33,842 bases of DNA from an uncultured Pirellulales bacterium. GTDB lineage: Bacteria; Planctomycetota; Phycisphaerae; Sedimentisphaerales; SM23-30. The notes beneath the pieces were generated by a model, which did not search any database, had not been told where the DNA came from, and worked only from the letters and a program-made list of their open reading frames with translations. Where the stretch lies: the NCBI GenBank assembly GCA_964574885.1, contig CAZNQT010000001.1, forward strand, positions 1 through 33,842, in the 5' to 3' direction. Position numbers and translations under genes: made by a program. This document shows, piece by piece, positions 1 through 33,842 of the stretch. Position 1 is the stretch's first letter, and every line of letters begins with the position of its first letter.

Positions 1-528
1 ACGTACTACTGGGTAGTTGATTGTTGGGATTACAGTGCTCCCCCCGGGGAGCAATTCCTTCCCGGTGTCCTTTGGGATTTTAACACGAATAACGAGGCCC
101 CGGAGGTAAACGCGGGAGATGACCAATATATCTGGCTCAACAATGCGGGGGATCCTGCAACGGCCACTGCCGAGATTGATGCCACGGTCACCGATGACGG
201 TCTGCCGTCCGGTCAAATTAATTACCTGTGGACGCAACTGTCCGGACCGGTGAATATTTTAATCGATCCTAATAACACGAAGGACGTTACGCTGGTGCTC
301 CCGGAACTGGGCGCCTATAATTTCCGGTTAACGGCTGACGATACGGATCAGGAAAGTTTCGATGTGATCCAAATTGTCGTAGCGGCGAATCCGTGCCTGG
401 CGGCCCAGGCGATGCCCGGATATACGGCGTTCCCCGGCGATCTAAATCTGGACTGCATCGTGGACCTGCGTGATTTAGGGATTTTAGCAGCAGATTGGCT
501 TAAGTGTAACAGCCTAGTGTGCCCCTAG
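1..528 (+). CDS. 3' part of a secreted multidomain surface protein (5' end outside the window): end of an Fn3-like module, a PKD-like module and a dockerin-like C-terminal tail
   Basis: Frame 1 is open from base 1 (TYYWVVDCWDY...LWDFNT) to TAG at 526-528. The track ORF at 250 is only an internal GTG. Motifs NAGDDQYIWL...TVTDDGLPSG..YLWTQLSGP (PKD-like) and GDLNLDCIVDLRDLGILAADWLKCNSLVCP at the C-terminus. Confidence 0.8.
   Translation, partial: TYYWVVDCWDYSAPPGEQFLPGVLWDFNTNNEAPEVNAGDDQYIWLNNAGDPATATAEIDATVTDDGLPSGQINYLWTQLSGPVNILIDPNNTKDVTLVLPELGAYNFRLTADDTDQESFDVIQIVVAANPCLAAQAMPGYTAFPGDLNLDCIVDLRDLGILAADWLKCNSLVCP
436..525 (+). other. dockerin-like four-Cys C-terminal tag (copy 1)
   Basis: GDLNLDCIVDLRDLGILAADWLKCNSLVCP-stop, with an upstream Cys in NPCLAAQ. 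Confidence 0.7.
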
Positions 529-580
529 AAACGACGGCGGTAGTTAATAACCGTAAATATAGATAAGGAGAATACCAGTG

Positions 581-623
581 CCGACAGCCGAGCACTGACC
601 TACGGTGCTTGGCTGTCGGTTTA
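581..623 (+). terminator. Rho-independent terminator
   Basis: 15-bp stem CCGACAGCCGAGCAC / GTGCTTGGCTGTCGG (one G-U pair), a 9-nt loop, then TTTACTG, about 55 nt after the stop at 528. Confidence 0.7.
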
Positions 624-719
624 CTGAGAGAGGAACTTGTCATATTGTAATCTCCTACGGAGGGTGACGAGGGATAAGAGTGTCGAATCGATGTTCTTGA
701 TCCTGACGCCTACTATTCT

Positions 720-3476
720 ATGTGGCCAAAAATTAAATTGGCAGTCACGATTGAGCTCGTGACGACATTACTTGCTGTAACTATTACCCGGGCGCAGCGA
801 CAAAGGGAAAATCTGGGGCGGGGAATGATCGCCGTCTTTCAGGGCGACGGCGCGGTCTATGTCGGATGGCGGATGCTGGGAACCGACCCGGAGAATATTG
901 CTTTTAATCTGTATCGCTCCACTGGCGGCGGAACGGCTGCTAAACTGAACGGTACACCTATCACGCAAAGTACGAACTGGGTGGATAATGGCGTTACCCT
1001 GAGTCAGTCGAATTCCTATTTTGTCCGGCCCGTGCTAAATGGTCAGGAACAAGAGGCCAGTACCCCGTTTACTCTGCCGGTAAATCCGCCGGAACAGAAT
1101 TATATGTCCATTCCGCTTCAGGGCGATTATGTATTGAACCGGGCCGGAGTCGGCGATCTGGACGGCGATGGGGAATACGATTACATTATCAAACAACCCG
1201 AACAGGTGACCGATCCGGGTGTTTATCATACCAGTGTGGATACCTGGAAGATAGAGGCGTACAAGAGTGACGGAACCTTCCTGTGGCGTAAGGATCTGGG
1301 CTGGAATATAGTGCAGGGCGTTTGGTGGTCGCCGATGATCGTATATGACCTGGACGGCGATGGCAAAGCCGAAGTGGTTGCCAAAACCGCACCCACGGAT
1401 GTTGATTACCGTCGTCCGTCCGATGGTCGGGTCCTGGAGGGACCGGAATGGTTCACCGTATTCGATGGACAAACCGGTGCGGAACTGGCCTCCGAGGACT
1501 GGATCCCACGCGGCAATATCTGTGATTGGGGCGACTGCTACGGCAACCGGGTGAATCGCAACTTGATGTGCGTTGCCTATCTCGATGGGGAACGACCCAC
1601 TATAGTGATTTTTCGCGGCACCTACGCACTAATGAAAGCAGAGGCCTGGAATTACCGCGACGGCCGACTGGAGAACGTCTGGCGTTGGTCCAACGAGGGC
1701 CTGGGTCCTGAATATCAAGGGCAGGGTTTTCATGAGATTCGGGTGGCCGATATCGATGGCGATGGTCGAGACGAAATCCTCAACGGCAGTATTGCTATTG
1801 ACGACGACGGTTCCAATATCTATACCACCGGCGAAGGACACGGAGATCGATTTCACCTGACGGATATCGATCCTAACCGGCCGGGACTAGAAACCTGGTA
1901 CATCCAGGAAGCCGGATATGATCATCCGGTTCATCTGCGGGATGCACGCTCGGGTGATTTGATATGGGGCCTGGAAGGAAACTGGGGCGACGTTGGCCGC
2001 GGTCTGACAGCGGATATCGATCCACGCCAGAAAGGTTTGGAATGCTGGTCGCCCCAGGGGGATTTATACAACTGTAAGGGCGATGTCCTCGGCCCCCAAC
2101 CCAATACCTGTCAATTCGCGATCTGGTGGGACGACGACCAACTGCGGGAATTACTGGAGAATGGCCGCATTCAAAAGTGGAATCCCTATACCCAAAGTTT
2201 GGATCAAATTGCAAACGCGGAATTATATACCTACTCGGATATCCTCATAGCGGATATCTTTGGCGACTGGCGTGAGGAAATTATTACGGTTCCCTCGGAG
2301 GGGGGGGAATTGCGGATTTATACTACTACGATTCCGTCCACGCGCCGCTTCCCCACTTTTATGCACGATCCGGTTTATCGAATCGACGTGGCCTGCATGA
2401 GCATGGGCTATACGCAGTCGGCACATCCCAGTTTTTATTTCGGGGCAGACGAACAATTGTTATGGCCGGTTTCGTTCGAGGCCGTAGCGGATGTGGAACT
2501 TGGCAATGACGATCAACTTGGTCCCAACGCATCCTCCAACGGCGCCGGTTTGGGAGTACGCAACATTCCGGCGAGACGCCGCGTGTCATTTCTCCAATAT
2601 GATATCTCGGACTATAAAACAGCGGGATCAGTATTTACCAACGTGCGGTTTAGTAATTTTGGGCATGACCTGAATGATCCGATAGACGTGTACGGGATCA
2701 TTGAGAGTCAAGATGACCTTCCGTCGGGAGAGGATGTGGAGGATCTCACCTGGAATACCGCTGCCGGGGTTCAGAATCATCCTACGCCGCCATTGGGCGA
2801 TCCGGTGACGCTGGACCTGGCCGACGTGGTCGGACCCTTAATGACCTTCACGCCGCCCGCTTCGGGAGTAAGAGAGCCAACGCCGATTAGCCAGGAAGTG
2901 GCGGATTTCCTCAACGACGATACGGATGGCATCGTAATTTTTATGTTTGCGACGACAATCGAGGGCGATCAGGCTATCATTCGTTCCAGCGAAGATTCCT
3001 CCGGCGGTACGTTTCTTATAGGGCAGGTCAAGATCAATAAAGCGCCTGATGTGGACGTAGGTCCGGATCAATATCTCTGGTTGGGTAATGCACTCGATCC
3101 TGCAACGGCCGTGGTGAATCTCCACGGGACGGCAACGGATGATGGGTTGCCTTCCCATGCCCTTTCGCTTCAATGGGAACAGACCACCGGGCCGGTCCCG
3201 GTCACTATTGCTCCCGATGACACGGCAAACATCACCCTAACACTCTCGGAAACCGGCGTTTACCAATTCCGACTGACGGCAACCGATGCGGATACATTTA
3301 GATCCGATACGGTTAAGATCATTGTGGCAGCGACGCCTTGTCAAGCCGCCCAGACGATGCCCGACTATACCCCCATTCCCGGTGATGTTAATAATGACTG
3401 CTTGGTGGATCTATTCGATTTGGGGATAATGGCATCGTACTGGCTTGCTTGTAACCGCCTGGACTGCCCAGAATAG
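720..3476 (+). CDS. rhamnogalacturonan endolyase, polysaccharide lyase family 11 (YesW-like beta-propeller), with added DNRLRE/CBM-like, PKD-like and dockerin-like C-terminal modules
   Basis: Blocks are near-collinear with B. subtilis YesW as I remember it: LGRGMIAV..GDGAVYVGWRMLGTD, VYDLDGDGKAEVVAKT, DWGDCYGNRVNRNLMCVAYLDGERP, VADIDGDGRDEI, IWWDDDQLRELL, DIFGDWREEII...LRIYTTTIPS..R..TFMHDPVYR. N-terminal signal peptide present. Confidence 0.9.
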   Translation: MWPKIKLAVTIELVTTLLAVTITRAQRQRENLGRGMIAVFQGDGAVYVGWRMLGTDPENIAFNLYRSTGGGTAAKLNGTPITQSTNWVDNGVTLSQSNSYFVRPVLNGQEQEASTPFTLPVNPPEQNYMSIPLQGDYVLNRAGVGDLDGDGEYDYIIKQPEQVTDPGVYHTSVDTWKIEAYKSDGTFLWRKDLGWNIVQGVWWSPMIVYDLDGDGKAEVVAKTAPTDVDYRRPSDGRVLEGPEWFTVFDGQTGAELASEDWIPRGNICDWGDCYGNRVNRNLMCVAYLDGERPTIVIFRGTYALMKAEAWNYRDGRLENVWRWSNEGLGPEYQGQGFHEIRVADIDGDGRDEILNGSIAIDDDGSNIYTTGEGHGDRFHLTDIDPNRPGLETWYIQEAGYDHPVHLRDARSGDLIWGLEGNWGDVGRGLTADIDPRQKGLECWSPQGDLYNCKGDVLGPQPNTCQFAIWWDDDQLRELLENGRIQKWNPYTQSLDQIANAELYTYSDILIADIFGDWREEIITVPSEGGELRIYTTTIPSTRRFPTFMHDPVYRIDVACMSMGYTQSAHPSFYFGADEQLLWPVSFEAVADVELGNDDQLGPNASSNGAGLGVRNIPARRRVSFLQYDISDYKTAGSVFTNVRFSNFGHDLNDPIDVYGIIESQDDLPSGEDVEDLTWNTAAGVQNHPTPPLGDPVTLDLADVVGPLMTFTPPASGVREPTPISQEVADFLNDDTDGIVIFMFATTIEGDQAIIRSSEDSSGGTFLIGQVKINKAPDVDVGPDQYLWLGNALDPATAVVNLHGTATDDGLPSHALSLQWEQTTGPVPVTIAPDDTANITLTLSETGVYQFRLTATDADTFRSDTVKIIVAATPCQAAQTMPDYTPIPGDVNNDCLVDLFDLGIMASYWLACNRLDCPE
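3381..3473 (+). other. dockerin-like four-Cys C-terminal tag (copy 2)
   Basis: GDVNNDCLVDLFDLGIMASYWLACNRLDCPE-stop, with an upstream Cys in TPCQAAQ. Confidence 0.7.
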
Positions 3477-3507
3477 CGAGGGATAAAGTAATACAGCCCA
3501 AAAATGG

Positions 3508-3536
3508 TTGTAATCGCGGCCATACTATATTATAAT
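3508..3536 (+). promoter_or_regulatory. candidate sigma70-type promoter (TTGTAA-17 nt-TATAAT)
   Basis: Near-consensus hexamers with a 17-nt spacer in the 222-bp AT-rich gap upstream of the pseudopilin gene. Sequence match only. Confidence 0.3.
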
Positions 3537-3698
3537 GTGCTCACAGCGCAGATAGACATAAAAGCATTTTAAAATTAACAAACAGAATATATCTGACAAT
3601 ACGCATCGTTTTGGATATTTTATACTCGTCAGGCAGTTTTCGCAAGACAGGTACTTCGCGAATATCGATGTAACATCTTGTCCTGAAAGGATTTAAAG

Positions 3699-4562
3699 AT
3701 GTCCGTTATGCGAAGGGCGTTTACGCTGATCGAATTATTGATCGTAGTGGCCATCATTGCGATTTTGCTCTCTATTCTCCTGCCGGCACTTCAAAGCGCC
3801 AAGGAAAAAGCGCGTCGGATTGCTTGCGCCGGGAATCTCAAAGTGACTGGTTCGGCCCTGAATTTCTATGCGACGGAATACAAAGGAAATTATCCCATCC
3901 TCTATGAATCGCACTGGCCTCATGACGTTTCGTTCTATACCGCCGATTACATCATCAAGCAGGGCGCCACGCGTGATGCTTTTTTTTGTCCGTCGCGACG
4001 AAAATATTCCGAGGCGATTGGCGGAGGCAAGGACGATCCACGCTTCTGGCAATACACTCTCCAAAGTAATAATGTAACGGGCCCCTGGCCTTGGTTGGAT
4101 GAGACAAACGTGGACAAATATCGAAATTACCGCGTGACTCATTATTTTTGGTTGATGGATGTCGAGCAGGATGACTTACCGGGTCGGGAATGGGAGATTG
4201 CCGGTTATCCTCAAAAAGGCTGGGTGCGAAAAGTGAATGCGTATCGTCGCAAGCAGGGGCATGGATTAGAGCCGCTGAAATATCCGGAAACGTTCGAACT
4301 GATTACCGAGGCCACCTATAGCGAGCAACCGAACGTAGAAAGTGCTAATTATGGATCTATCCATACTGATTTCTGGAATAAATGGCAAATTCCTCATCGA
4401 ACCAATCATCTGGCTCCCGGAGGCCGCCCTGCCGGCGGCAATATCTTTTTTGTGGATGGCCATGCCTCCTGGCGTCCTTTCGAGCAGATGTGGCCGGACA
4501 AAAACCGGCCCCAGGAACCCCGCAGTCTGGACTGGGACCGAAGTCCCTATTTCTGGTGGTAA
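3699..4562 (+). CDS. prepilin-type N-terminal cleavage/methylation domain protein, DUF1559 / H-X9-DG-like pseudopilin family
   Basis: N-terminus [28 protein letters not shown] (class III signal, conserved Glu at +5). C-terminus [32 protein letters not shown] lies 7 nt upstream of the ATG at 3699. Confidence 0.85.
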
Positions 4563-4836
4563 ATAACGGTTATAGCGATATATTGGTTGGATTGTAGCAT
4601 CTAACCAGATGCTGGAAACACGACAAAGGAGGGTGTTTTATAGCCTGGATCGAGATTCTTATCAAGGCGAATTATCTACGTATTGATATGGCAGGAGGAG
4701 TCTATTACATGCTCAAACCTCGGATACAGATGAGGAAAATGAAATCATATTTTGGAGGTATATGTCTATGACGGAGATTACCAAAAATGGATTCCAGAGG
4801 ATAAATTCAAGACATATTGTATTGGAGGATTTAAAA

Positions 4837-6513
4837 ATGAGAATAGGAAAATTATGTGTATGGTTTGCGATCTTGAGTTTATTAAGCAAGAGTTCTTTTG
4901 GAGCGTTTGAGTGGATTAATACGACTTCCGGATATTGGAATGATCCGTTGAATTGGCAGGCTGCGGACAGTACCAATAAAGTACCGGATGGTACGGACGA
5001 AATCAAGATCCGACAAGGGAGAGAGACCATCCTTAATACTGTGGAGGATAACGATAGTGCCCGGCTGCGATTATATGTCGGCACCATGACGATTCACAGC
5101 GGCGCCAACCTTACTATTGGGTGGACGCGCATTGGCCATACCAATGCACAAACCGCGGTGATCAATCAGGATGGCGGCACCTTCGATCACCAGGACGGCA
5201 GATTGTCCCTGGGTAATGATTATGCCACCGGTATCTGGAACATCAGCGGGGGAACGCTCAGTTCGACGGGCAGCGGTATGTACATCGGATACACCCGTGG
5301 CAGCGGACTCGCACCCAGCACCGGCAGATTAGTGGCTATCGGCAGCAATGCCGCTATCACGGTAGATGATATGTACGTGGGAGTGGGAACCGTGGCTTCG
5401 GGAGATACGGGCATTCTCGAATTTCAGATGGATGCCGGCGGGGCCAGCACGATGGTCATCACCAACAGACTCGAACTGGACGTAAGTGACGCCGACTCGA
5501 TTGCTCGACTGGAAGTGAGCGCATCGGCTACCCTGGCGAAGACCGACATCGTTTTAGTGAATGTGACCAGCGCCACTGCCATCGCCGGCGCCGGCGCCTT
5601 TGATAGCATGAACGGCGGTCCCGCCGCGGAAGGGACCATAATTCTGGTAGGCGGTAACCTTTATTCCCTGACCTATCAATATGATGCTGATGGCGACTCC
5701 GCGAACAACGACGTTGCATTAGTCTTTGTCGCGGGAGAAGATGAGCTGGCACACGACCCAAATCCAGCTAACGGTATAAGTGTGGAAACCAGCCTGTCCA
5801 CATTGTCCTGGACGAATCCCGAGCCAAATACTCCGGGTGCTCCGATCACCTGCGACGTGTACTTCGGCGTCGATCCGAACCGCCCGGATATGGATAAAGT
5901 GACGCTGGGTGCAGATATTTCCAGTGTGGAAATTAACGCGACCAATTTCCCCCATCATACACCGCTGACAAATAACACTTGGTATTATTGGGTGGTCGAT
6001 TGTCACGATCCCAGTGGGGGCGGCTTGATCGAAGGTTTGATGTGGTCGTTCTATACCGATGATAATGAGCCGCCCACCGCCGATGCAGGCCCCGACCAAG
6101 TCGTTTGGCTCGGCAAGAGCGGCACGCCTAATCAGGAGATGATCCAGTTGGATGGTACGGCCTCCTCCGATGACGGCAAGCCGAATCCTCTCACGTATCT
6201 CTGGGAACAAGTGCCCAACGATGCTCCCGAAGTAACCGTCACTCCCGATAACATAGCAAATCCGACCGTAACCGTTACCGAGAGAGGAGTGTATGAGTTT
6301 AGCCTAACCGTGGACGACGGGGGCAAACAAAACTCCGATACGGTGCAGATTAGCGTCGGAACGGATGCCTGCGACGCTTCCCATCTGAGCACGGGAGATC
6401 CGTATAACGAATGGGACCAAAATATGGATTGCCTTGTGGACCTGAAGGATTTTGCCTCATTCGCGCTGAATTGGCTGGATTGCACCGATACTCTGACCTA
6501 CTGCGGCATCTAA
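4837..6513 (+). CDS. secreted beta-helix/adhesin-like surface protein with Fn3-like, PKD-like and dockerin-like C-terminal modules
   Basis: The track ORF opens at 4762, but GGAGGA at 4824-4829 lies 7 nt before the ATG at 4837, which gives the signal peptide MRIGKLCVWFAILSLLSKSSFGA. Then W..TSGYWNDPLNWQ plus Gly/Thr/Ser-rich strands, an Fn3-like block (LSWTNPEP...WYYWVVDCHDP...MWSFYT), a PKD-like block (ADAGPDQVVWLG...LTYLWEQV) and the tail. Confidence 0.75.
   Translation: MRIGKLCVWFAILSLLSKSSFGAFEWINTTSGYWNDPLNWQAADSTNKVPDGTDEIKIRQGRETILNTVEDNDSARLRLYVGTMTIHSGANLTIGWTRIGHTNAQTAVINQDGGTFDHQDGRLSLGNDYATGIWNISGGTLSSTGSGMYIGYTRGSGLAPSTGRLVAIGSNAAITVDDMYVGVGTVASGDTGILEFQMDAGGASTMVITNRLELDVSDADSIARLEVSASATLAKTDIVLVNVTSATAIAGAGAFDSMNGGPAAEGTIILVGGNLYSLTYQYDADGDSANNDVALVFVAGEDELAHDPNPANGISVETSLSTLSWTNPEPNTPGAPITCDVYFGVDPNRPDMDKVTLGADISSVEINATNFPHHTPLTNNTWYYWVVDCHDPSGGGLIEGLMWSFYTDDNEPPTADAGPDQVVWLGKSGTPNQEMIQLDGTASSDDGKPNPLTYLWEQVPNDAPEVTVTPDNIANPTVTVTERGVYEFSLTVDDGGKQNSDTVQISVGTDACDASHLSTGDPYNEWDQNMDCLVDLKDFASFALNWLDCTDTLTYCGI
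6415..6510 (+). other. dockerin-like four-Cys C-terminal tag (copy 3, ends CGI)
   Basis: DQNMDCLVDLKDFASFALNWLDCTDTLTYCGI-stop, with an upstream Cys in DACDAS. Confidence 0.65.
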
Positions 6514-6547
6514 GGAAGCTGTGCACCTTTTTTTAATTTTCATCCAG

Positions 6548-6574
6548 AAGGGGCGCTTCCGGGCGCCCCTTTTA
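6548..6574 (+). terminator. Rho-independent terminator
   Basis: GGGGCGC-TTCCGG-GCGCCCC stem-loop (extendable by A-T pairs) followed by TTTT, 35 nt after the stop at 6513. Confidence 0.75.
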
Positions 6575-6644
6575 CTTGAATCACGGTATAATATTACCTA
6601 TTACAATGAGGGGTATATTAATTCCTAAGTGAGAATGAGTATAG

Positions 6645-8690
6645 ATGAACAAGAATTTCAACATAGTCTGTAATCGAATTCTCATAATTGTAGGCACCGG
6701 GATTTTTCTTGTGAGCAATGCACTTTATGCCCAAGAAAAAGGAAAATATCAAACATCTCAAATCGCTATTACTCCTAAAGTTGAGCGAGTCGAGCGATCT
6801 CTTTCACCCAAGAACATACGAAAAATCGGCGGCTTTATAGGTACGAGATTCAAGGCTAACTTAAATGAGTATCTACTTGTTTTTGACATCGATCATTATG
6901 TTCAGATGTTCGAAGAGAAACAACATCGGGACTGGTGGTGGATCGGCGAGCAGGCGGGCAAGTGGATGGAATCGGCTGTGTTGGCAGCAAGCCAAACCGA
7001 AGACATGGCACTTCGGGAAAAAGCGGAAAAGGCTCTGGCACGTCTGATAGCGTCGCAGGAACCGAGCGGGTATCTCGGAATTACCGATCCGGCGGTACGC
7101 ACGGATCAACTTCCCCTGCGCGGCATGGATGCGTATGAACTCTATTTCATGCTGCATGGTCTAATAACCGCATATGATCTATGGAGTGAAGAGCAGGCGC
7201 TGCAAGCCGCATCTCGTCTCGGTGACTACTTTGTGAATCACATTGGCCCCGGTAAAGCCCAGTTCTGGCCCCGGCCCAAGGGGAAAACCATTGCCGGTCA
7301 CAATATTCATTACTGCCTGGAAGGAACGTTACTGGCCAATCCCATGCTGCGTTTATACCTTGCCACGGGGGACGAGAAATATCTCAAATGGTCCAAGTGG
7401 GTAATTGACAACATTGATCTTTGGTCGGGTCACAATACCTTCTCGAAACTCGATCAGGTAGCCATCGGCGCTATGGGCGTTCACGAACTGCAACCAAAAG
7501 TACATTCCCATACTTTCCACATGAATCTACTCGGGTTCCTGCGTCTCTATCAGATTACCGGAGATGAGTCATTGCTGCGCAAAGTCCGGGGCGCCTGGCG
7601 CAATATTGCCAAGCGCCAGATGTATATTACCGGGGGCGTCAGTGTGGATGAATACTATAGAGCGGGACAAAATTTACCCGTTTCCGGTTCGGTGGTGGAA
7701 ACGTGCGCGATGATGTCGTGGATGGAACTGAGCCAATATTTGCTCGAGTTGACGGCGAATCCTATTTATGCCGATGTGATCGAACGGCTATTGTGGAACC
7801 ATTGGTTTGCGGCACAAGCGGTTGACGGCGATTCTTTTCGCTATTACGTACCACTAAACGGCGCCAAACCGGCCGGTTATTACCACGGACCCGACTGCTG
7901 TACGGCGAGCGGGCCCCGTATGACTGCTATGATCCCTACTTTGTTTTATGCGGTCGGGAAGGATGGGATTTATATTAATCAGTTTGTTGAGTCCGCTGCC
8001 GAAATCAAACTGGATTCCGGTAATATTGTTTCCTTAATCCAGGAGACGAAGTATCCCAGCCGAGGGGAACTGACGTTCAAAATCAATCCTCAACAGGCTG
8101 AATTCTTTGTCTTATCTATTCGTTTACCAGCCTGGTGCTCCAATCCATCCCTCAGTATAAACGACAAGATTATCGAAGGATTACATCCGGGAACCTATGT
8201 AAAACTTAAGCGTCACTGGCAGAAGGGGGATTATATCAAACTCACTTTGCCGATGCAGGCGAAATGGACTAAGCGCACCCACGCTACTGAAGATGCGTGG
8301 GCCTTGGTACGCGGACCGGTGGTCTATGCCGTGGATACCGTTTGGTGGGATTCTTCGATCTCAGAAATATTTGACAGGGCGATGCCGAAGGATATGTCGA
8401 AAGTAATTGGCGTGGTACTGGATGAATCAAACTTGAATGCCGATTTGAAATCCGAAATAACTCTTGAAAGAACTCTGGGACTCGCCTACCTCGTCACCAT
8501 TGCTTTTCCCAACGGTCAACGCGCGGAAGTACCTGCCTTGCCGTTTGCGAACGTGGGACGCTGGTATGCCGATCCGGCCCGAAAACCCGATTATAATGAA
8601 CGCCGATATCATTACGCCGTTTGGCTGCCTAACGTAGGCAGCGAAAGATATGCAGAGATCATGCGACAGTATAGACGAAAGCAAAAGTAA
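6645..8690 (+). CDS. glycoside hydrolase family 127-like (DUF1680, beta-L-arabinofuranosidase type)
   Basis: Signal peptide present. (alpha/alpha)6-type helices (YELYFMLHGLITAY). Motifs VVETCAMMSW and GPDCCTASGPR match the Glu/Cys and Cys-Cys zinc/nucleophile motifs known from HypBA1-type GH127 enzymes. The usual CCPPN is replaced by CCTAS. Confidence 0.8.
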   Translation: MNKNFNIVCNRILIIVGTGIFLVSNALYAQEKGKYQTSQIAITPKVERVERSLSPKNIRKIGGFIGTRFKANLNEYLLVFDIDHYVQMFEEKQHRDWWWIGEQAGKWMESAVLAASQTEDMALREKAEKALARLIASQEPSGYLGITDPAVRTDQLPLRGMDAYELYFMLHGLITAYDLWSEEQALQAASRLGDYFVNHIGPGKAQFWPRPKGKTIAGHNIHYCLEGTLLANPMLRLYLATGDEKYLKWSKWVIDNIDLWSGHNTFSKLDQVAIGAMGVHELQPKVHSHTFHMNLLGFLRLYQITGDESLLRKVRGAWRNIAKRQMYITGGVSVDEYYRAGQNLPVSGSVVETCAMMSWMELSQYLLELTANPIYADVIERLLWNHWFAAQAVDGDSFRYYVPLNGAKPAGYYHGPDCCTASGPRMTAMIPTLFYAVGKDGIYINQFVESAAEIKLDSGNIVSLIQETKYPSRGELTFKINPQQAEFFVLSIRLPAWCSNPSLSINDKIIEGLHPGTYVKLKRHWQKGDYIKLTLPMQAKWTKRTHATEDAWALVRGPVVYAVDTVWWDSSISEIFDRAMPKDMSKVIGVVLDESNLNADLKSEITLERTLGLAYLVTIAFPNGQRAEVPALPFANVGRWYADPARKPDYNERRYHYAVWLPNVGSERYAEIMRQYRRKQK

Positions 8691-8768
8691 AACGATTGAA
8701 ATGATATTTCATACTATGCATTCAAGGCTGGTGCTATTAATATGTTTTTTAATGCACAGGAGACCATG

Positions 8769-10247: not shown

Positions 10248-10275
10248 ATCCTCATAATAGAATTGATAAACAGGA

Positions 10276-20375: not shown

Positions 20376-20427
20376 CATCGATAAATCATAGCTGAGCTTA
20401 TCTTTTATGAAATAAGGAGATCGTATT

Positions 20428-21480: not shown

Positions 21481-21660
21481 AAGCACACTAAATTCTACAC
21501 AATGAACTCATCGACGACGTGGATCTCGATAAACTCGACGCATCCCGGAAGCGGCGGGACATCTAAGTCGATACTTTAGGATAAGAGAATGGCCCCTGAA
21601 GGTGATAAGGGCTCTGAGTGCTGCTTAGCGATTATTTGTTATTTTTTATGAAATTTTAAA

Positions 21661-21688
21661 TTTCAACCTCCAATCTTCGCTTTACAAT
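21661..21688 (+). promoter_or_regulatory. weak candidate promoter upstream of the ECF sigma gene (TTTCAA-16 nt-TACAAT)
   Basis: Hexamer match only, in an AT-rich region. It abuts the 17-nt palindrome at 21649-21665. Confidence 0.2.
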
Positions 21689-21738
21689 CAATTAAATATA
21701 TGAGAGGGAGTATATGTTTGATGAGTACCGAATAATTT

Positions 21739-23875: not shown

Positions 23876-23953
23876 CCTAGAGATGTAAAACCGTGGTTCT
23901 TGGTTTGTAGTTAGGAAATTAACGGAAATTATATATGAAGAAGGAGAATGGTG

Positions 23954-25435: not shown

Positions 25436-25524
25436 CGGAAAACAAAGATCACGAAGGTTTTGGGGGGTTATTAAAAAATGTAAAGTGTAATCGAAAAACT
25501 TGAAACTGAGGAAGGAGATTGGTG

Positions 25525-27003: not shown

Positions 27004-27101
27004 CGGAAAATGAAGAGAAAAAAGTTTTTTGGCGTGTTGCCAGGATATAAAAAGTAGTTACGTAGAATAGTTTAATAGTAAGGAAAGAAAGGTGGTGGAA
27101 G

Positions 27102-27926
27102 ATGGTAAAAAAGTTTTTTCTAGTGTCTGCGTTTTTGTCGCTGCTTTTGTTTAGTGGGTTTGCAATTGCTGCGCCGGTACCGGTCTGGCAGAACACCCTG
27201 GAAAATGATGCTACGAGTACGGTCGATGGCGGTGAAATTGTAAACCCGCCTTCGAGCTACGTTCCCGGTTCGCAGGGGAATGCATTTGCCGGCAACGACA
27301 GCGTCTATGTCCAATGGGACAACACCGATGTCGCTAACATCTTTGACGGCGTCTGGAACAACGCCCTTGGCTCTACGGTCGATTTGTACTTCCGCGGCGA
27401 CCACTGGGACACCCATTCCGATGATTCGGGACTATGGTCGGTGGTGGACCGACTCGGCGGCGATCCGGATGGTTATTTCATCTTGTCAGTGCGTGACGGA
27501 AGCTTGCGTTTTCCGTATAAAGATTCCTATTCCGGTTTAAGTGAGGCTCCTCACCTGACCGGTATCACACTGGCTAACGATACCACGTATCGCTTGACCG
27601 TACGTCAACTTGGCGCCAACTTTGAGGTGTATCTGGACGGCGGTGCCTACAGCAACGGTTCCCCTGTCTTTTCAGAGAGCGACTGGCCCCAAACTATATC
27701 TTTCCCGGAATATAATGACGGGTCTAATAGCGGCGGCCGTGAGATGAATGTAGGCAACCGCAGCAGTTTTTTCGGCGGCGCCCTTCAGAGCGGAGAATGG
27801 GTGGACAGCATTCGAGTTTTCAATGGGTACTATACGCCGGCGGAGATAGGTGAGATTCCGGAACCCTGTTCGCTGCTGTTGCTTTCGATGGGTGCCCTGC
27901 CGCTACTGCGGCGTAAACGCGGGTAA
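27102..27926 (+). CDS. LamG-like lectin-domain protein, paralogue 3, with a PEP-CTERM sorting tail
   Basis: Signal peptide MVKKFFLVSAFLSLLLFSGFAIA. Same LamG-like domain as paralogues 1 and 2. After YNGYYTPAEI it runs directly into PEP-CTERM. Confidence 0.85.
   Translation: MVKKFFLVSAFLSLLLFSGFAIAAPVPVWQNTLENDATSTVDGGEIVNPPSSYVPGSQGNAFAGNDSVYVQWDNTDVANIFDGVWNNALGSTVDLYFRGDHWDTHSDDSGLWSVVDRLGGDPDGYFILSVRDGSLRFPYKDSYSGLSEAPHLTGITLANDTTYRLTVRQLGANFEVYLDGGAYSNGSPVFSESDWPQTISFPEYNDGSNSGGREMNVGNRSSFFGGALQSGEWVDSIRVFNGYYTPAEIGEIPEPCSLLLLSMGALPLLRRKRG
27855..27923 (+). other. PEP-CTERM sorting signal
   Basis: IPEPCSLLLLSMGALPLLRRKRG-stop: a PEP motif, a hydrophobic span and a basic cluster. Confidence 0.85.
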
Positions 27927-27985
27927 GTAGAAAGTGAAAAGAGACTTAAGTTTCTGAATTGGGGCTACATGACCAAAAAACGCAG

Positions 27986-28026
27986 GAGCCCCGGATTGCG
28001 GTACCGCATGATGGGGCTCTTTTCTC
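27986..28026 (+). terminator. probable Rho-independent terminator after paralogue 3
   Basis: GAGCCCC (27986-27992) pairs with GGGGCTC (28013-28019). The 20-nt loop contains the palindrome GCGGTACCGC. TTTTCTC follows. This is the only convincing hairpin plus T-tract between the sigma gene and paralogue 4. Confidence 0.55.
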
Positions 28027-28112
28027 TGGAAAAGAAGAGTGACGAAACCTGAATGACGAAACAATAAATCCTTAATCCCGGGATTCGATTTTATGACAAG
28101 GAGAAAGAAGAA

Positions 28113-31100
28113 ATGCGCAAGAAGCAGCGAATGGTTGTTTGCCTGGTGGCGCTACTATCCTTTTATAGCTGTTCCCTCGACGGCGTTCAGGGAGCGCCCG
28201 ATCCGATCTGGCACTGCAGCCTGGATAATCTGGATTCGATTACCATTGATGGCGGCGCGATTGTGGATGGATCGGCGAGTTTCGTACCCGGCGCCATCGA
28301 TAACGCCTTTGCCGGCAACGGCAACGTCTATGCGAGTTGGGATAACACGGAAGTTGAGAACATTTTCGGCAGTTGGAACAACAGCCTGGGATCTACAGTA
28401 GATCTATACTTTCACGGCGATCACTGGGATGCCCATTCCGGTGATTCAGGTTTCTGGTCGGTGGTGGATAGGCTTGATGGTAATGACGGGTATTTCATTC
28501 TGTCAGTGCGCGACGGGAGTTTACGTTTTCCATACAAGGATTCTTATACGAATTATAATCAAGCTCCCCATCTGACCGGCATCCCACTGGCCAACAATGT
28601 CACGTATCGCCTGACGGTGCGCCAACTCAATAACAACTTTGAGGTGTATCTCGACGGCGGCGCCTACAGCAACAGTTCTCCTGTATATTCCGATAACACC
28701 TGGAGCCAGACTATTTCATTCCCGGAATATAATGGCGGCAGTGGTAGTAGCGGACGCCATATGAATGTCGGCAATCGCAGCGTATGGTTCGACGGTACGC
28801 TCCAGAGCGGCGAATGGGTGGACCATATTCGGGTCTATAACGGGTATTACACGCCGGCGGAGTTGGGTGATCCGCGCGGTGATGAAGACTGCCCCATAAG
28901 CGATATGGATGATGATTGCGATGTCGATATGTTGGACTTGCAGATTGTTCTCAAGCAGTGGTTGAATGTGGACTTTCCCACGCAAGGACTGGTCGCACAT
29001 TGGAAGTTGGATGGCGATTCGTACGACAGCACCGGTAACCATGACGGTATAATCTATGGCAATCCGATCTGGGATCCGAATGGTTATATCGACGGCGCCC
29101 TGAGCCTGGATGGTGACGGAGACTATATCGATGTGAGCAATCCCTCTTCTTTAAAGCCCAACTTGCCGATTACCCTGGCCGCCTGGATCAAACTTGCAGA
29201 ACTGGGTGATTATCAGGTTATTATCAACCTTGATGAAAAAGACAATGATTACTCCACTCGATTTTATGGTGCTGTTCTGTTTGTGTGGAATACAGGACAG
29301 TTGGTCGCTTCTTTCGGTGACGGACAACCAAACTACAGCAGTCGATATAAGATGGGCACAACGATATTGCAGACGCATACCTGGAATCATGTGGCGGCGG
29401 TAATCCGGGGCGCGAATGACTTCAACCTGTATATTGACGGTCATGATGATGGGGGTGAGTATGGCGGTGATGGTGGGGCGATGGTGTATTCCGATGGAAA
29501 CTCCCAGATCGGCTCTCGTAACGGCACGGCTTTATTTCTGCATGGTGATATCGACGATGCTCGAATTTATGATCGGGCCTTACGCTCCGACGAGGTCGGG
29601 ATTTTGGCGAATGAGGCGGATCTTAACAAAGACGGCAGTGTGAATCTGGACGACTTTACCATTCTGGCTGCGGAATGGCTATTCGGAACGCAAGTGTCCA
29701 TAACCCGGCAACCAGAGAACCTGACTCTATATGAAGGAAATACAGCTACTTTCACTGTGTCTGCGGAAAGCGCTGAACCCATCAGCTATCAATGGCAGAA
29801 GAACACCGTTGACTTGAACGACGGCGGCGACATTTCTGGTGTTACAACCGACACGCTGCAAATTACAAATACGGAAACCTCCGATGAAGGCCAATATCGC
29901 TGCGTGGTAAGTAATATTTTTAATTCGGTCATCTCGGACGAAGCCACTTTGACAGTTACTTTCGGGGTGCCGGTCGGCCGTCAAACCCTTTATGATGCGA
30001 CAACCAATCGCCGTTATATCCTCTATGTACCGATGGATTACAATCCTCCCCAAAAGCTTTATCCGCTGATTATCAGTTCCCACGGCACCAGCCAGAACGG
30101 CGATACCGAGATGGACTCGACCGGCCCCAACAGCGGCTACGACCGAGGCACGCCCACCTGGCCCACCCTGGCCGAGGATAACGACGTAATTGTCGCCTGC
30201 CCCGACATGACCGGAGCGTACGGTGAAAGCGGCTGCGCGGTCAGTTCCACGCATCTAAGCCAACTGGCCTCCGATGATACCGCCATAATGGCCATTATCA
30301 ACGATATTGAAGCCACCTATGATATCGACACAAACAAAATAATGTTGACCGGCTTCTCCGGCGGCGGGAACGTGGTACACTATGTAGGGCTCCGTCATCC
30401 GGATGTATTTAACGCCATCTGTGCCCGACACGGCAACTTCCATGAAGATGAGACGCCCAGTCCACTGCCGAATGGTGCGGTCGATACGGATGTATATATT
30501 TTCACCGGCACTAATGACGGCGTCTGCGGAACAAATGAGGCTATCGCTTGGTACACGGCACAAGGATTTAATTATCTGGACACGGATTACTTCAGCACCT
30601 ATCCAAGCAGCGAACATACCACGGACAGACACCATGCGTTGAACTGGTTTCTGAATTTGAATCTGGAAGTAAGCGCTAACGGCCACTACGTAAGATATCA
30701 TGGCCAGAATCTATTACTAATCGGCGACAGCGGCACCCAATGCGCAACCCAGAACAGCAATTTGGACTACCGCCAGTGGATAGATGACTGTGCGGCTCGT
30801 GGCATCAAAGCAATTCACGTTTGGTCGTTCATGGGTGCCCGCCAGAAACAAGATGGCTCGGTCATCGAAAGCCGTTGGGGATACGTATATCCGTGTGTGA
30901 CGCCCTGGGCAAGGCATACTTCAGGGCCGTTGGCCAACGATCAGCTCTATCAGTGGGATTTGCAATCCTTAGATGAAGGTCCGGATGGAGATCTCACCCA
31001 CTACTGGCCTCGCATGCGCGATATGTGTCAATACGCCAAAAGTAAGGGAGTCCTGGTCGGTTATACGATGTTTACCGGTTGGATCAAAGGCAATAGCAAC

Positions 31101-32027
31101 GCCTGGCCATATCACCCGTTTAATGTCGCCAACGGAGGCCATCTGACGACGTATCCGGATGCCGGTGTGACCATCGAGTCGCCCGGTACGGAGGTCTGGC
31201 AGGAAATCTACTCCGACGCCTGGTCGAACGCCAAGAAGACTCAGTGGATATGGGAACAGTTTTCCCTTAAGGCAATCAACGAACTTGGTTCGATTGGTAA
31301 TGTGTTTTTTGTATTTTTTGATGAGCATTCCTATACGGAAGGCAATATGGGCGATCATTTCCGGGACTTCTTCCGCAGCCGCGGCCAGGTATGGATGGAT
31401 TGGAACGCCCGCCGCAGCACCATCGATTGGGTCATGAGCGGCACGTTCGGCGGAGACGATAAAAACTCCAACGCCGTCTCGGGCTTTAACGGCAGTCCTG
31501 CACGACCGTACTTCTTCCTGGAAGGAGAACCTTATATGGGAGACGGCGTGCGTACCGCAATTTGGACTTTCACAATTGGCGGCGGAAACTACTTCTTCCA
31601 CGCCGACGCTGGTCAAGAAACTGTGACTACGGGCATTATGGTGTACGATCCCAGTTCAACGCCGCCGGGACAGAAGGACAAAGTCCTGGAACGGCTTTCG
31701 TGGCTCGGTCACGCCAGCACGTTTTTCAATCAGTATGTGGACGATCTGGACTCGCTCTCACCTGCCAACGGACTGACGAGCAGTACTCCTGGAGTATATT
31801 GTCTGGCCGATAACGGCAGGGAATATGTGGTTTATTCCAAGATCGGCGCGGCGGTAAACTTTACCGTCAATCTCAGCGCCGCTGCCGGTAAAACTCTAAA
31901 CTGCCGGTTCTATAATCCTCAGAACGGCGTATTCAACTCGACCTTCCAGCGCAGCGGCGGAAACAGCGCCGAATCGTTCTCCAAACCGGATTCCAATGAC
32001 TGGGTGCTTCACATCGTGGAAAATTAA
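28113..32027 (+). CDS. 1304-aa secreted chimera: LamG-like paralogue domain 4, dockerin-like repeat, Laminin_G_3 domain, dockerin-like repeat, Ig I-set domain, alpha/beta-hydrolase esterase (CE1/PHB-depolymerase-like), TIM-barrel-like glycosidase-like domain, beta-sandwich
   Basis: RBS AAGGAGA lies 8 nt upstream. Laminin_G_3: LVAHWKLDGDSYDSTGNHDG...GALSLDGDGDYI...WNHVAAV...LYIDG...GDIDDARIYDRAL. Ig: ITRQPENLTLYEGNTATFTV...YQWQKN...DEGQYRCVVSN. Esterase: YILYVPMDYNP...LIISSHG...IMLTGFSGGG (nucleophile elbow). C-terminus: NLLLIGDSGTQ...GIKAIHVW...WPYHPFNVANGGH...FFDEHSYTEG...GVYCLADNGREYVVYSK. Confidence 0.8.
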   Translation: MRKKQRMVVCLVALLSFYSCSLDGVQGAPDPIWHCSLDNLDSITIDGGAIVDGSASFVPGAIDNAFAGNGNVYASWDNTEVENIFGSWNNSLGSTVDLYFHGDHWDAHSGDSGFWSVVDRLDGNDGYFILSVRDGSLRFPYKDSYTNYNQAPHLTGIPLANNVTYRLTVRQLNNNFEVYLDGGAYSNSSPVYSDNTWSQTISFPEYNGGSGSSGRHMNVGNRSVWFDGTLQSGEWVDHIRVYNGYYTPAELGDPRGDEDCPISDMDDDCDVDMLDLQIVLKQWLNVDFPTQGLVAHWKLDGDSYDSTGNHDGIIYGNPIWDPNGYIDGALSLDGDGDYIDVSNPSSLKPNLPITLAAWIKLAELGDYQVIINLDEKDNDYSTRFYGAVLFVWNTGQLVASFGDGQPNYSSRYKMGTTILQTHTWNHVAAVIRGANDFNLYIDGHDDGGEYGGDGGAMVYSDGNSQIGSRNGTALFLHGDIDDARIYDRALRSDEVGILANEADLNKDGSVNLDDFTILAAEWLFGTQVSITRQPENLTLYEGNTATFTVSAESAEPISYQWQKNTVDLNDGGDISGVTTDTLQITNTETSDEGQYRCVVSNIFNSVISDEATLTVTFGVPVGRQTLYDATTNRRYILYVPMDYNPPQKLYPLIISSHGTSQNGDTEMDSTGPNSGYDRGTPTWPTLAEDNDVIVACPDMTGAYGESGCAVSSTHLSQLASDDTAIMAIINDIEATYDIDTNKIMLTGFSGGGNVVHYVGLRHPDVFNAICARHGNFHEDETPSPLPNGAVDTDVYIFTGTNDGVCGTNEAIAWYTAQGFNYLDTDYFSTYPSSEHTTDRHHALNWFLNLNLEVSANGHYVRYHGQNLLLIGDSGTQCATQNSNLDYRQWIDDCAARGIKAIHVWSFMGARQKQDGSVIESRWGYVYPCVTPWARHTSGPLANDQLYQWDLQSLDEGPDGDLTHYWPRMRDMCQYAKSKGVLVGYTMFTGWIKGNSNAWPYHPFNVANGGHLTTYPDAGVTIESPGTEVWQEIYSDAWSNAKKTQWIWEQFSLKAINELGSIGNVFFVFFDEHSYTEGNMGDHFRDFFRSRGQVWMDWNARRSTIDWVMSGTFGGDDKNSNAVSGFNGSPARPYFFLEGEPYMGDGVRTAIWTFTIGGGNYFFHADAGQETVTTGIMVYDPSSTPPGQKDKVLERLSWLGHASTFFNQYVDDLDSLSPANGLTSSTPGVYCLADNGREYVVYSKIGAAVNFTVNLSAAAGKTLNCRFYNPQNGVFNSTFQRSGGNSAESFSKPDSNDWVLHIVEN
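28902..28970 (+). other. internal dockerin-like repeat 1 of the chimera
   Basis: DMDDDCDVDMLDLQIVLKQWLNV, preceded by EDCPIS. It keeps the first two Cys but lacks the terminal C..CP. Confidence 0.6.
29619..29687 (+). other. internal dockerin-like repeat 2 of the chimera
   Basis: DLNKDGSVNLDDFTILAAEWLFG: a canonical DxNxDGxxxxxD Ca-loop plus helix, with no Cys. Confidence 0.6.
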
Positions 32028-32366
32028 ATTGTTATGAGGATGATTATGCGGTGGTACTTGAGGTGCTAAACGGATGGCGGACACTCGGGGAGTAGGTATA
32101 ATGCCATCCCACGAAAGCTCTATCCTTCATTTTAACTGCCAAAACCGCTTTTCTTAAGATAATACATGGCGTCGCTTCAATTCGATGGTCACCTCTTTGG
32201 CAAGACAGGTAAAATGGTTGACTATTGTAAATAAAGGACTTATAATAACGACGTCGAATTTTTAATGCACAAAGATGCAGGCTCATTGCAATTTCTATAA
32301 CAATTTTAGCGGTTTGGACTGATCCAGAGTTTAGATGAATTTTGACATAGGACGGATTGTTCGTCA

Positions 32367-33842
32367 CTACGGACAGTTGACAGGGTGGTTACATTCCAAC
32401 CAGTTATTAGCCAGGGCAACAAGATCCGGGAAAAAGTAGATGTCCATCCAGCCAGTTGCAAGCTCGTCAAAGTCAAACAGATCAATCCGGCAATCTTCGT
32501 TCAGGTCGCCGGGAATTATGGGATGACCCTCATCACCACAAACAGCGCCCAATACAAAGTCGGTTAAAACCACCGCCCTGGGATCAAACAAACTTTCGGA
32601 ACCATAATGCACTACAAAAGAGCCAGTTCCCTCGGCCATGTTAAACCGCTGGCCATTCGAGGCATTGGCAAATTCGCCGTTAATTCCCCCACTGGTTGTC
32701 AGTATCGTGAATACGTCGTTTGGATCGGGAACAAAATCATTTAGCTGACGTACAAGCAAACTCCCGGCCAGGTTAGCCACACCGGCACCGGTTCCACTAA
32801 TAACCAATCGATCATACTGACTACCTGCTGCTGGACCGCCAATCTCGATCTCAAGCCGTGCCGTCTCGCCGTTGTCGTAGTTTCCTACATACTGAAGAAT
32901 ACCTGCTGACAAACCGGGTGAAAAACCGCCAAGGTTCAGGAAGCCGGCTCCACCGCCGATCGTTACAGTACCGATGCCCTCAACAACACCGTTTGGTTCA
33001 TTGGTGAACGAACCGGAAGACACCAAAAGGTTTACCCCGGCTTCTTTGATACTAATCAAGGCATTGTTGAGGTAACTGCCACCTGATCGGTTGAAAGTGG
33101 CACTCTGGCTCAGGTTGACCATACCGTTATTGATTAGGTTGGCCTGCAAAGATCGGGTACCGCCGCCTGAACCACCGAAACTGATGATACCGCTGCCGTT
33201 GTTGGTTAACGTGCCGTTGGACACTATGAAAATAGCGACATTGTTGCTGGAGGTGTTAAGGGCCAGGGTACTGTCATTGCTGAAGCCTGTGGCGGAGGTG
33301 ATGTAGCTATTGTAACTACCATCCGCCTGAGCGGTCAGGAACTGCCCGGCCGCCAGGTCGCCGCTGAAGGTGTTGTTGTTGCCCCGCATAATAAAGTCGC
33401 CGTTACCCGCTTCCGGAGCAATATTCAAATAGGAATTGGTTAACAGCATCGGATTTCCGGTGATTTCACCGCCGTTGTAATTGAAGGTGATGCTCGTCGG
33501 ATCGAACGATCCCTGGACATCGAGAATCCCCCCGTCCTGATTGAACGCCTGAGAGAACCCATTGATCGTCAAGTCCTTGTCCGCCGCGATGTTGAAAGCG
33601 TTGTTATTGGTGTAACTGCCGCTGTTCTTGCTGAAACTGGCGTCCTGATTGATGTTTACGGTACCGTTGTTGATCAGGTTGGCCTGCAATTCCCGCAGGC
33701 CGCCGCCCGTGCCGACGAAACTGATAATCCCGTCAGCGTTATTGGTTAACGCACCGCCGGTCACTGTGAAAATGGCGGCATTGTTGGTGGAGGTGTTAAG
33801 GGCCAGGGTACTGTCATTGCTGAAGCCTGTGGCGGAGGTGAT
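32367..33842 (-). CDS. 3' part of a large repeat-containing beta-helix adhesin-like surface protein with a dockerin-like C-terminal tail (5' end outside the window)
   Basis: The minus-strand frame stays open to the window edge: the track start at 33764 is an internal GTG and the upstream codons read ITSATGFSNDSTLALNTSTNNAAIFT. Gly/Asn/Thr/Ser-rich strand repeats, then ARLEIEIGG...YDRLVISGTG.ANLAGSLLV..L..F.P, then the tail. Confidence 0.8.
   Translation of the reverse strand: MTSATGFSNDSTLALNTSTNNAAIFTVTGGALTNNADGIISFVGTGGGLRELQANLINNGTVNINQDASFSKNSGSYTNNNAFNIAADKDLTINGFSQAFNQDGGILDVQGSFDPTSITFNYNGGEITGNPMLLTNSYLNIAPEAGNGDFIMRGNNNTFSGDLAAGQFLTAQADGSYNSYITSATGFSNDSTLALNTSSNNVAIFIVSNGTLTNNGSGIISFGGSGGGTRSLQANLINNGMVNLSQSATFNRSGGSYLNNALISIKEAGVNLLVSSGSFTNEPNGVVEGIGTVTIGGGAGFLNLGGFSPGLSAGILQYVGNYDNGETARLEIEIGGPAAGSQYDRLVISGTGAGVANLAGSLLVRQLNDFVPDPNDVFTILTTSGGINGEFANASNGQRFNMAEGTGSFVVHYGSESLFDPRAVVLTDFVLGAVCGDEGHPIIPGDLNEDCRIDLFDFDELATGWMDIYFFPDLVALANNWLECNHPVNCP
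32370..32510 (-). other. dockerin-like four-Cys C-terminal tag (copy 6, extended two-helix version)
   Basis: GDLNEDCRIDLFDFDELATGWMDIYFFPDLVALANNWLECNHPVNCP-stop, with an upstream Cys in AVCGDE. Confidence 0.7.
33063..33842 (-). repeat. intragenic direct repeat: an approximately 240-bp segment recurring at a 540-bp offset (33063-33302 and 33603-33842)
   Basis: 33241-33302 and 33781-33842 differ at 1 of 62 nt (TTGTTG[C/G]TGGAGGTGTTAAGGGCCAGGGTACTGTCATTGCTGAAGCCTGTGGCGGAGGTGAT). Flanking similarity is about 70-75 percent by eye. The repeat probably continues beyond the window. Confidence 0.8.

Follow-up and report, generated by a model that had tools for sequence, protein, structure and literature searches.

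A C-terminal four-cysteine module resembling a single dockerin repeat in putatively secreted proteins of Phycisphaerae-type Planctomycetota

The stretch of DNA analyzed here, hereafter the window, comprises the 33,842 nucleotides of contig CAZNQT010000001.1 (assembly GCA_964574885.1) from an uncultured Pirellulales bacterium that GTDB places in the order Sedimentisphaerales of the class Phycisphaerae. It is a pectin/rhamnogalacturonan-type utilisation region, in which Pfam matches identify genes for a PL11 lyase, a GH127 protein, a bacterial TSP3-repeat protein, DUF6298 and DUF4838 proteins, and an extracytoplasmic function (ECF) sigma factor with a FecR-type anti-sigma. Six open reading frames (ORFs) of this region end in the same element, a tail of roughly 45 residues with four cysteines (Cys1 to Cys4), a loop of the dockerin F-hand type and a predicted helix closing in Trp-Leu. 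The six tails, together with two related internal copies, are as follows.

394 to 525, plus strand: tail 1, from Cys1 to the last codon (stop codon at 526-528), in an ORF fragment running off the window start, after a K319L-like PKD domain
3339 to 3473, plus strand: tail 2, end of the PL11 rhamnogalacturonan lyase ORF 720-3476, after a K319L-like PKD domain
6370 to 6510, plus strand: tail 3, end of ORF 4762-6513 (signal peptide, N-terminal region without assignment, PKD domain), last residues Cys-Gly-Ile
25319 to 25432, plus strand: tail 4, short-spacer subtype, end of the lectin-like paralogue ORF 23948-25435
26887 to 27000, plus strand: tail 5, short-spacer subtype, end of the lectin-like paralogue ORF 25519-27003
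32370 to 32540, minus strand: tail 6, end of ORF 32367-33764, whose N terminus lies beyond the window
28881 to 28970, plus strand: internal copy with Cys1 and Cys2 only, in the 1304-residue ORF 28113-32027, just upstream of a Laminin_G_3 domain
29613 to 29687, plus strand: internal copy without cysteines and with Gly at loop position 6 (classical dockerin/EF-hand type), in the same ORF, just downstream of Laminin_G_3

That six ORFs share a terminal four-cysteine element, as a first-pass annotation of this DNA had proposed, is confirmed by their translations and by a pattern search. The pattern C-x(4-22)-D-x-[ND]-x-x-C-x-[VI]-D-[LM]-x-D-x(6-24)-W-[LM]-x-C-x(3-8)-C, run on the six-frame translation of the window, yielded exactly six matches (394-522, 3339-3467, 6370-6504, 25319-25429 and 26887-26997 on the plus strand, and 32373-32540 on the minus strand), each ending 1-2 residues short of a stop codon. 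Chance as the origin of the motif is excluded, since 200 shuffled versions of the window gave no match to either the full or the core motif. The coordinates assigned earlier fall in the right places but begin at the Gly-Asp of the loop, while Cys1 lies 8-19 codons further upstream. The consensus seen in the six tails is C-x(5-17)-GD-x-N-x-D-C-x-V-D-x-x-D-x7-W-L-x-C-x(4-7)-C, in which the four cysteines, the first Asp of the loop (D1), D9-L10, D12 and the Trp-Leu pair are invariant. With a hidden Markov model (HMM) built from these sequences, tail 1 scores 85.9 bits and has 0 residues between the end of the match and the end of its ORF. Tail 6 is distinguished by a 16-residue insertion, which looks to be a duplicated helix (...ATGWMD, then ...ANNWLEC) with no second Ca2+ loop; as an intermediate, it may stand between a two-repeat dockerin and the single-loop tail.

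The proteins carrying these tails are less diverse than was first thought. Three of the six have a K319L-like PKD domain directly before the tail and two are paralogues of each other, so the carriers are not all unrelated, and the label of beta-helix adhesin given to ORFs 4762-6513 and 32367-33764 finds no confirmation in Pfam. The assignment of ORF 720-3476 is backed by an RGL11_C match of 477 bits. Both internal copies that had been described in the 1304-residue ORF as lacking the last two cysteines are present, and the second of them (29613-29687) is matched by Dockerin_1 with 18.8-19.7 bits, and by EF-hand_7 as well. Besides Laminin_G_3 (residues 333-495), this ORF contains an Ig domain, an esterase/PHB-depolymerase-like domain and one Collagen_bind_2-like domain at the C terminus.

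The earlier proposal that the tail is akin to half of a type I dockerin holds, over the loop and helix only. When a profile of 20 tails was compared to all Protein Data Bank (PDB) sequences, the best matches were type I dockerins, 2y3n_B (E 7.8e-6) followed by 5nrm_B and 4fl4_A, and these matches were confined to profile positions 7-30, that is, the loop and helix, with each dockerin repeat aligning separately. Dockerin_1 (PF00404) gives 16.7 bits for tail 2, 13.9 bits for tail 5 and nothing for the other four, against a gathering threshold of 22.9, and it matches 18 of 27 four-cysteine tails from other genomes below threshold, with a best E value of 0.0016. At E<0.001, it is found in 2 of 61 carriers. 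In these alignments, the window tails cover profile positions 1-23 only, and overall the matches cover either 1-23 or 31-53, i.e., one repeat. No other Pfam family is consistently matched by the 27 tails, and NCBIfam returned no match for the tails, including no sorting-domain model at E<=10. Because the PDB profile matches and the sub-threshold Dockerin_1 matches alike span one repeat, the tail loop and helix are, judging from these alignments, homologous to a single F-hand repeat of type I dockerins.

As in type I dockerins, an F-hand of the form D-x-N-x-D-x-x-V-D-x-x-D is followed by a hydrophobic helix, and the module sits mostly at the C terminus of secreted carbohydrate-active proteins. 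Read in this register, the tail loop is D1-x-N3-x-D5-C6-x-V8-D9-x-x-D12, with Cys2 at position 6, the usual site of a Gly. The predicted set of Ca2+ ligands (D1, [ND]3, [DN]5, D9 and D12) is complete in all six tails. Position 6 is not always Gly in solved dockerins either, as the PDB profile alignments include examples with Lys or Asn there or beside it. However, the ~22-residue repeats of a type I dockerin, a module of ~60-70 residues, are not found as a pair in the tails, each of which consists of one loop and one helix. The tail further differs from type I dockerins in its Cys for Gly at position 6, its four conserved cysteines, its conserved Trp-Leu, its sub-threshold Pfam score and its Gram-negative planctomycete host.

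These differences bear on the alternative that the tail is an ordinary type I dockerin whose receptor, a scaffoldin with cohesins, is specified by another part of the genome, as in classical cellulosomes. Type I dockerins are indeed its best sequence relatives, the carriers degrade or bind polysaccharides, and the Sedimentisphaerales isolate Limihaloglobus encodes a two-cohesin protein (PMC11557425). Nevertheless, the tail has one repeat only, all six copies fall below the Pfam gathering score, four conserved cysteines are not a feature of classical dockerins, and, as already stated in the first-pass annotation, the long ORFs of the window include no cohesin that Pfam detects; we therefore regard this explanation as highly improbable. 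Cohesin and dockerin modules have been described in Planctomycetes, including a proposed "planctosome" (PMC6461901). The non-cellulosomal dockerin-like repeats known from this phylum share the repeat superfamily of the tail but are of the classical Gly type and frequently form long arrays or occur together with cohesins, whereas the tail is a single, cysteine-stapled terminal copy.

Conservation of the cysteines was examined in relatives. A four-tail alignment was used to scan one genome of each GTDB species by pattern and tblastn, with 189 stretches confirmed, and an HMM built from the six window tails was used to search the stop-to-stop ORFs of the window and of 80 genome loci (i-E<1e-3). 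A second, independent set consisted of 80 metagenome loci from the Joint Genome Institute, which brings the two sets to 160 related loci. Since the patterns by which loci were chosen contain the loop cysteine (and, in the second set, also W-L-x-C), cysteine pairing was also counted for secondary matches alone; all pairing counts cover every F-hand-like loop irrespective of its cysteine content. In the genome loci, a cysteine at loop position 6 is accompanied by an upstream cysteine in 108 of 112 cases, as against 16 of 40 loops without it (p 1e-13); among matches not used for locus selection, the figures are 27/28 and 16/38 (p 3e-6), and the metagenome loci replicate them with 67/67 and 18/67 (p 2e-21). 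After the helix, genome loci have either no cysteine (65 cases) or two (40 cases), and rarely one (4 cases). Across the 160 loci, cysteines are thus gained or lost in pairs, Cys1 with Cys2 and Cys3 with Cys4, a pattern that points to two local disulfides, Cys1-Cys2 and Cys3-Cys4, which we predict for the tail.

The same searches define where the module sits. Of 122 domains in the window and the genome loci, 81 have at most 10 residues between their end and the stop codon, 12 have 11-40 and 29 have more, and in the metagenome loci the distance is at most 10 residues for 76 of 96 domains. The four-cysteine form, counted as C-terminal when its loop ends no more than 40 residues from the stop, is C-terminal in 36 of 40 genome cases and 57 of 58 metagenome cases. 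Relatives therefore bear out both the conservation of the four cysteines and a strong preference of the four-cysteine form for the C terminus, and the family forms a series in which cysteine-less copies are of the classical type, two-cysteine copies are often internal and four-cysteine copies are nearly always terminal. To call the terminal position obligatory was an overstatement, though, since internal four-cysteine copies account for 4 of the 40 and 1 of the 58, and for 23 of 65 in the top-scoring multi-copy proteins. Nor is the position foreign to dockerins, as had been suggested: the classical dockerins of cellulosomal enzymes are usually C-terminal. Finally, the Cys-Pro ending is real in five of the six window tails but does not extend to the family, in which Cys4 is followed by Pro in 23 and by Trp in 17 of 78 distinct four-cysteine tails, and by 1-2 residues in 52 of them (full range, 1-11). 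Cys-Pro-stop is a local habit and no family rule.

How autonomous the module might be was addressed by modeling. AlphaFold2, run with small alignments, predicts a long-spacer tail alone with a pLDDT (predicted local distance difference test) of 87, as a short helix (residues 3-8), the loop and a second helix (residues 28-40), and a short-spacer tail (tail 4) alone with a pLDDT of 84 and a helix at residues 24-41. The criteria of a canonical EF-hand pair do not describe the tail: in neither model does an entering helix directly precede the loop, a Cys occupies position 6, and only one copy is present in 72 of the 77 carriers from the genome loci. This prevalence of single copies indicates that the module normally stands alone. 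The best-supported reading of sequences and models is that the tail would be an autonomous mini-domain of 40-50 residues.

EF-hands usually pair, and one may thus ask whether the single F-hands pair with each other and so restore a two-repeat unit, in trans to yield oligomers of secreted proteins or in cis to clamp the ends of a domain. Several layouts are compatible with this. In SBBP beta-propeller proteins (P0081, P0099, P0104, P0065 and P0061), a two-cysteine copy comes right after the signal peptide and a four-cysteine copy is C-terminal; as the termini of beta-propellers are close in space, this suggests pairing in cis. Likewise, the two half-modules flanking Laminin_G_3 in ORF 28113-32027 might pair across the inserted domain, and many top-scoring proteins have exactly two copies. 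The 72 of 77 carriers with a single copy argue against self-pairing, as do the confident modeling of the lone tail as a monomer and the disulfides, which seem to take the place of the missing repeat, and we judge it improbable. A different two-copy layout is seen in P0098, P0114, P0121, P0150, P0175 and P0188, where an internal four-cysteine copy lies ~270 residues before a second, terminal one, apparently sandwiching a domain of ~230 residues without assignment.

Clues to function come from the carriers and from what replaces the tail in their paralogues. Across the loci, 57 of 64 carriers have a signal-peptide-like N-terminal segment, and their Pfam content is varied, with Laminin_G_3 (17/61) and PKD (14/61) leading, followed by Ig, beta-helix, Chlamydia-PMP repeats, F5/8 type C, cyclophilin, GSDH, BNR and GDSL. 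The window contains four paralogous N-terminal domains, 67-69% identical, that differ in their C-terminal endings: two ORFs continue into extra domains and a four-cysteine tail, one runs via a two-cysteine copy into the long multidomain protein, and one ends directly in the following element.

27858 to 27923, plus strand: anchor of the PEP-CTERM type (a PEP motif, a hydrophobic helix and RRKRG) at the end of ORF 27102-27926

Among 70 homologues of this lectin-like domain in the databases, most are proteins of ~270 residues that end in PEP-CTERM, and many carry PF07589, so that anchor and tail appear as alternative endings of one domain family. The two occupy the same C-terminal place on paralogues of the same lectin-like domain and differ in kind, PEP-CTERM (PF07589) being an exosortase-cleaved combination of motif, transmembrane helix and basic cluster, while the tail is predicted to be a soluble, folded module. 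Inspection of the tail sequences shows neither a hydrophobic span nor an Arg/Lys cluster, which argues that the tail is no exosortase-type sorting signal; an exosortase/rhombosortase-type tag was rejected on the lack of a transmembrane helix and of any NCBIfam sorting-domain model at E<=10. The exchange with PEP-CTERM provides circumstantial support for a role of the tail in localisation.

We tentatively favor, while stopping short of calling it probable, the reading that the tail is a self-contained, Ca2+-bound and doubly disulfide-stapled half-dockerin, a docking handle by which enzymes and lectins are held on the cell surface or on a partner. In this scenario, the carriers (the PL11 lyase and the lectin-like (ConA/LamG-like) and PKD-bearing proteins) would be exported through the Sec pathway, after which the tail would fold. 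Ca2+ would be held by side chains at loop positions 1, 3, 5, 9 and 12 (D, N/D, D/N, D and D), and two local disulfides would stand in for the missing second dockerin repeat. Cys1 would tie the preceding segment to Cys2 at loop position 6, and Cys3, directly after the Trp-Leu at the helix end, would pair with Cys4 close to the stop codon and so close a loop of 4-8 residues. The folded tail would then act as a protein-protein docking handle and be the non-covalent equivalent of PEP-CTERM, the anchor found in its place in paralogues. A cohesin as the partner is possible in principle, given the two-cohesin protein reported for Limihaloglobus (PMC11557425). The structural part of this proposal is based on sequence homology, ligand conservation, cysteine covariation and confident models; the functional part draws on the analogy with dockerins, the terminal position, the secreted and diverse carriers and the PEP-CTERM swap. 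Ca2+ binding, the disulfide connectivity and, above all, docking are what we infer from these lines of evidence.

Several points weigh against this docking proposal. Strong conservation is restricted to the core, namely the Ca2+ ligands, the hydrophobic helix face (positions 13, 16, 17, W20 and L21) and the cysteines. The presumably exposed helix positions 10, 11, 14, 15, 18, 19 and 22 vary among the six window tails, contrary to the expectation for one receptor shared by all. A dockerin-like binding surface is conjectural, since the canonical dockerin fold needs two repeats, and Foldseek found no similar solved structure in the PDB for either tail model. The existence of internal four-cysteine copies hints that the module is perhaps no terminal handle but a building block of general use. 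Lastly, no binding partner was identified: Pfam detects no cohesin in the long ORFs of the window, and clustering of the genes neighboring tails in the 80 genome loci revealed no recurrent cohesin-like or processing-enzyme family.

Some of these observations would be accounted for if the tail were a passive stabiliser, a Ca2+- and disulfide-bound cap shielding extracellular C termini from proteolysis or unfolding with no partner at all. Conservation limited to core positions, the empty partner searches and the placement of two-cysteine and cysteine-less copies between domains, like linkers, all fit such a cap. Yet an extreme C-terminal preference on otherwise unrelated proteins, combined with the PEP-CTERM exchange, is typical of localisation modules, and many secreted proteins of the same loci have no tail; we consider the stabiliser unlikely, if still worth taking seriously.

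The families that do recur beside tails in the 80 genome loci are pseudopilin-like genes, ECF sigma/FecR pairs, oxidoreductases and sulfatases. The first of these includes a window gene that is a candidate partner only, on the strength of a statistical lead.

3699 to 4562, plus strand: gene with a prepilin-type N terminus and DUF1559 (N_methyl and DUF1559 Pfam matches), between two same-strand tail genes

In the genome loci, 12 of 37 prepilin/DUF1559-type genes directly adjoin a tail gene on the same strand, and the same is true of 57 of 729 genes of other kinds (odds ratio 5.7, p 3e-5). The corresponding counts from the metagenome loci, 6/13 and 80/353, show the same tendency but are not significant (p 0.09), and several of the pairs overlap at start and stop. 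Such adjacency was seen in L001, L003, L006, L008, L010, L012, L013, L025, L067, L074, L097, L108, L116, L139, L147 and L149. In a model planctomycete, no paralogue family is larger than DUF1559, which has no function assigned and numbers 68 genes in Planctopirus (PMC10632474).

These neighbors raise the possibility that the tail is an export or loading signal, which, once folded, would be read in the periplasm by a type II secretion or pilus-like machinery via DUF1559 pseudopilin-like proteins, for passage across the outer membrane or display on a fibre. Apart from gene order, including the window gene lying between two tail genes, this would agree with the disulfides, which imply folding before or during export. 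On the other hand, 9 of 15 adjacencies in the genome loci come from one carrier family, pointing to conserved synteny that explains the signal in part; the replication is not significant; such a neighbor stands beside only about 19% of tail genes; and DUF1559 genes are very abundant in planctomycetes anyway. We find this hypothesis, drawn from gene order, rather improbable. Its more specific version, in which the four-cysteine tail is the handle that loads secreted enzymes and lectins onto pilus- or pseudopilus-borne DUF1559 "adaptors" in Phycisphaerae, to form a cohesin-free, fibre-displayed enzyme system, is a speculation to which we give a small chance. A pseudopilin partner is a hypothesis and not a finding, but if the loading idea were true, it would provide a first function for the largest paralogue family of Planctomycetota.

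Other known systems resemble the tail in part. Excalibur (PF05901) is a small extracellular EF-hand-like Ca2+ loop with a conserved Cys (motif DxDxDGxxCE), often terminal on secreted bacterial proteins, but its Cys is at loop position 9 rather than 6 and it lacks the exiting Trp-Leu helix. Pfam gave no Excalibur match for the six tails at E<=10 or for 27 family tails at E<=1. The dockerins of anaerobic fungi (CBM10-like) are ~40-residue, disulfide-rich docking modules on secreted plant-cell-wall enzymes; they are unrelated in sequence and fold, being beta-rich with no Ca2+ F-hand, and offer an analogy only. Two secretion signals were considered and rejected. A type I secretion signal does not agree with the Sec signal peptides of the carriers, and the C-terminal domain of type IX secretion is a beta-sandwich of ~80-100 residues, whereas the tail has 40-50 residues, is helical and matches no C-terminal-domain model of NCBIfam or Pfam.

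The family is large. A HMMER search of 1.84 billion representative proteins returned 17,438 hits at E<=1e-3 and 1,053 at E<=1e-10, classical multi-repeat relatives included. The top of this list is dominated by classical multi-repeat, Gly-type dockerin-like proteins, mixed with proteins that have an internal two-cysteine and a terminal four-cysteine copy; because the top 150 are ranked by summed score, multi-copy proteins are over-represented there. A word-indexed homologue search with tail profiles produced fragments of at most 100 residues, which served as a source of sequences and are uninformative on architecture. Among the best 80 loci of the genome scan, none of which is identical to the window, 77 are labeled Planctomycetota, under names such as Phycisphaerae, Sedimentisphaerales, Anaerohalosphaeraceae, Phycisphaerales and, in many cases, "uncultured Pirellulales". 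Exact searches with the 495-residue protein and, in the Joint Genome Institute metagenomes, with a 42-nucleotide stretch gave no match. The other labels are Zixiibacteriota (L007 and L079) and Aegiribacteria (L013), with tails nearly identical to those of Phycisphaerae metagenome-assembled genomes (MAGs); L013 is a 4.3-kb contig with a planctomycete-type pseudopilin gene beside the tail gene. These labels could reflect mis-binning, mislabelling or horizontal transfer. Source annotations name the carriers by their other domains (LamG, SBBP or beta-helix) or as hypothetical, and we found no description of a single-loop four-cysteine tail in the literature searched. The family is thus large and without a name, and it belongs almost entirely to Phycisphaerae/Sedimentisphaerales-type Planctomycetota.

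The genes around the tails provide further context. Immediately upstream of the four arrayed lectin-like paralogues (23948-32027) are overlapping genes for an ECF sigma factor and a FecR-type anti-sigma (21739-23875), which may be a regulatory unit for the array. The anti-sigma carries a 3-keto-disaccharide-hydrolase/LamG-like domain at its C terminus. A secreted protein of 501 residues (8742-10247) has no cysteine tail and ends in a TSP3 Ca2+-binding repeat region, so the same cluster uses another acidic, Ca2+-binding C-terminal appendage. In a Sedimentisphaerales MAG (L064), four consecutive ORFs (1-2163, 2248-3978, 4439-7411 and 8507-10198) all end in a four-cysteine tail (...NGDCP), preceded by a W-x-F-T-T-G segment as in the lectin paralogues of the window, which indicates that arrays of tail genes occur in related genomes too.

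In anoxic sediments, Phycisphaerae play a major part in degrading complex polysaccharides, and we know of no account of how they keep their secreted enzymes near the cell. The tail is an unannotated, single-repeat dockerin relative that is widespread in one bacterial class, where it marks a large set of secreted enzymes and of lectin-like and adhesin-like proteins while having no name in Pfam or NCBIfam. As a predicted Ca2+-dependent, disulfide-stapled docking domain of ~45 residues, it might be of use as a minimal tag in protein engineering. With a model of its own, the annotation of thousands of proteins would improve and the "tagged" exoproteome of these bacteria would be defined, and the tail itself would be a bait for its receptor, be that cohesin-like, pseudopilin-like or other.

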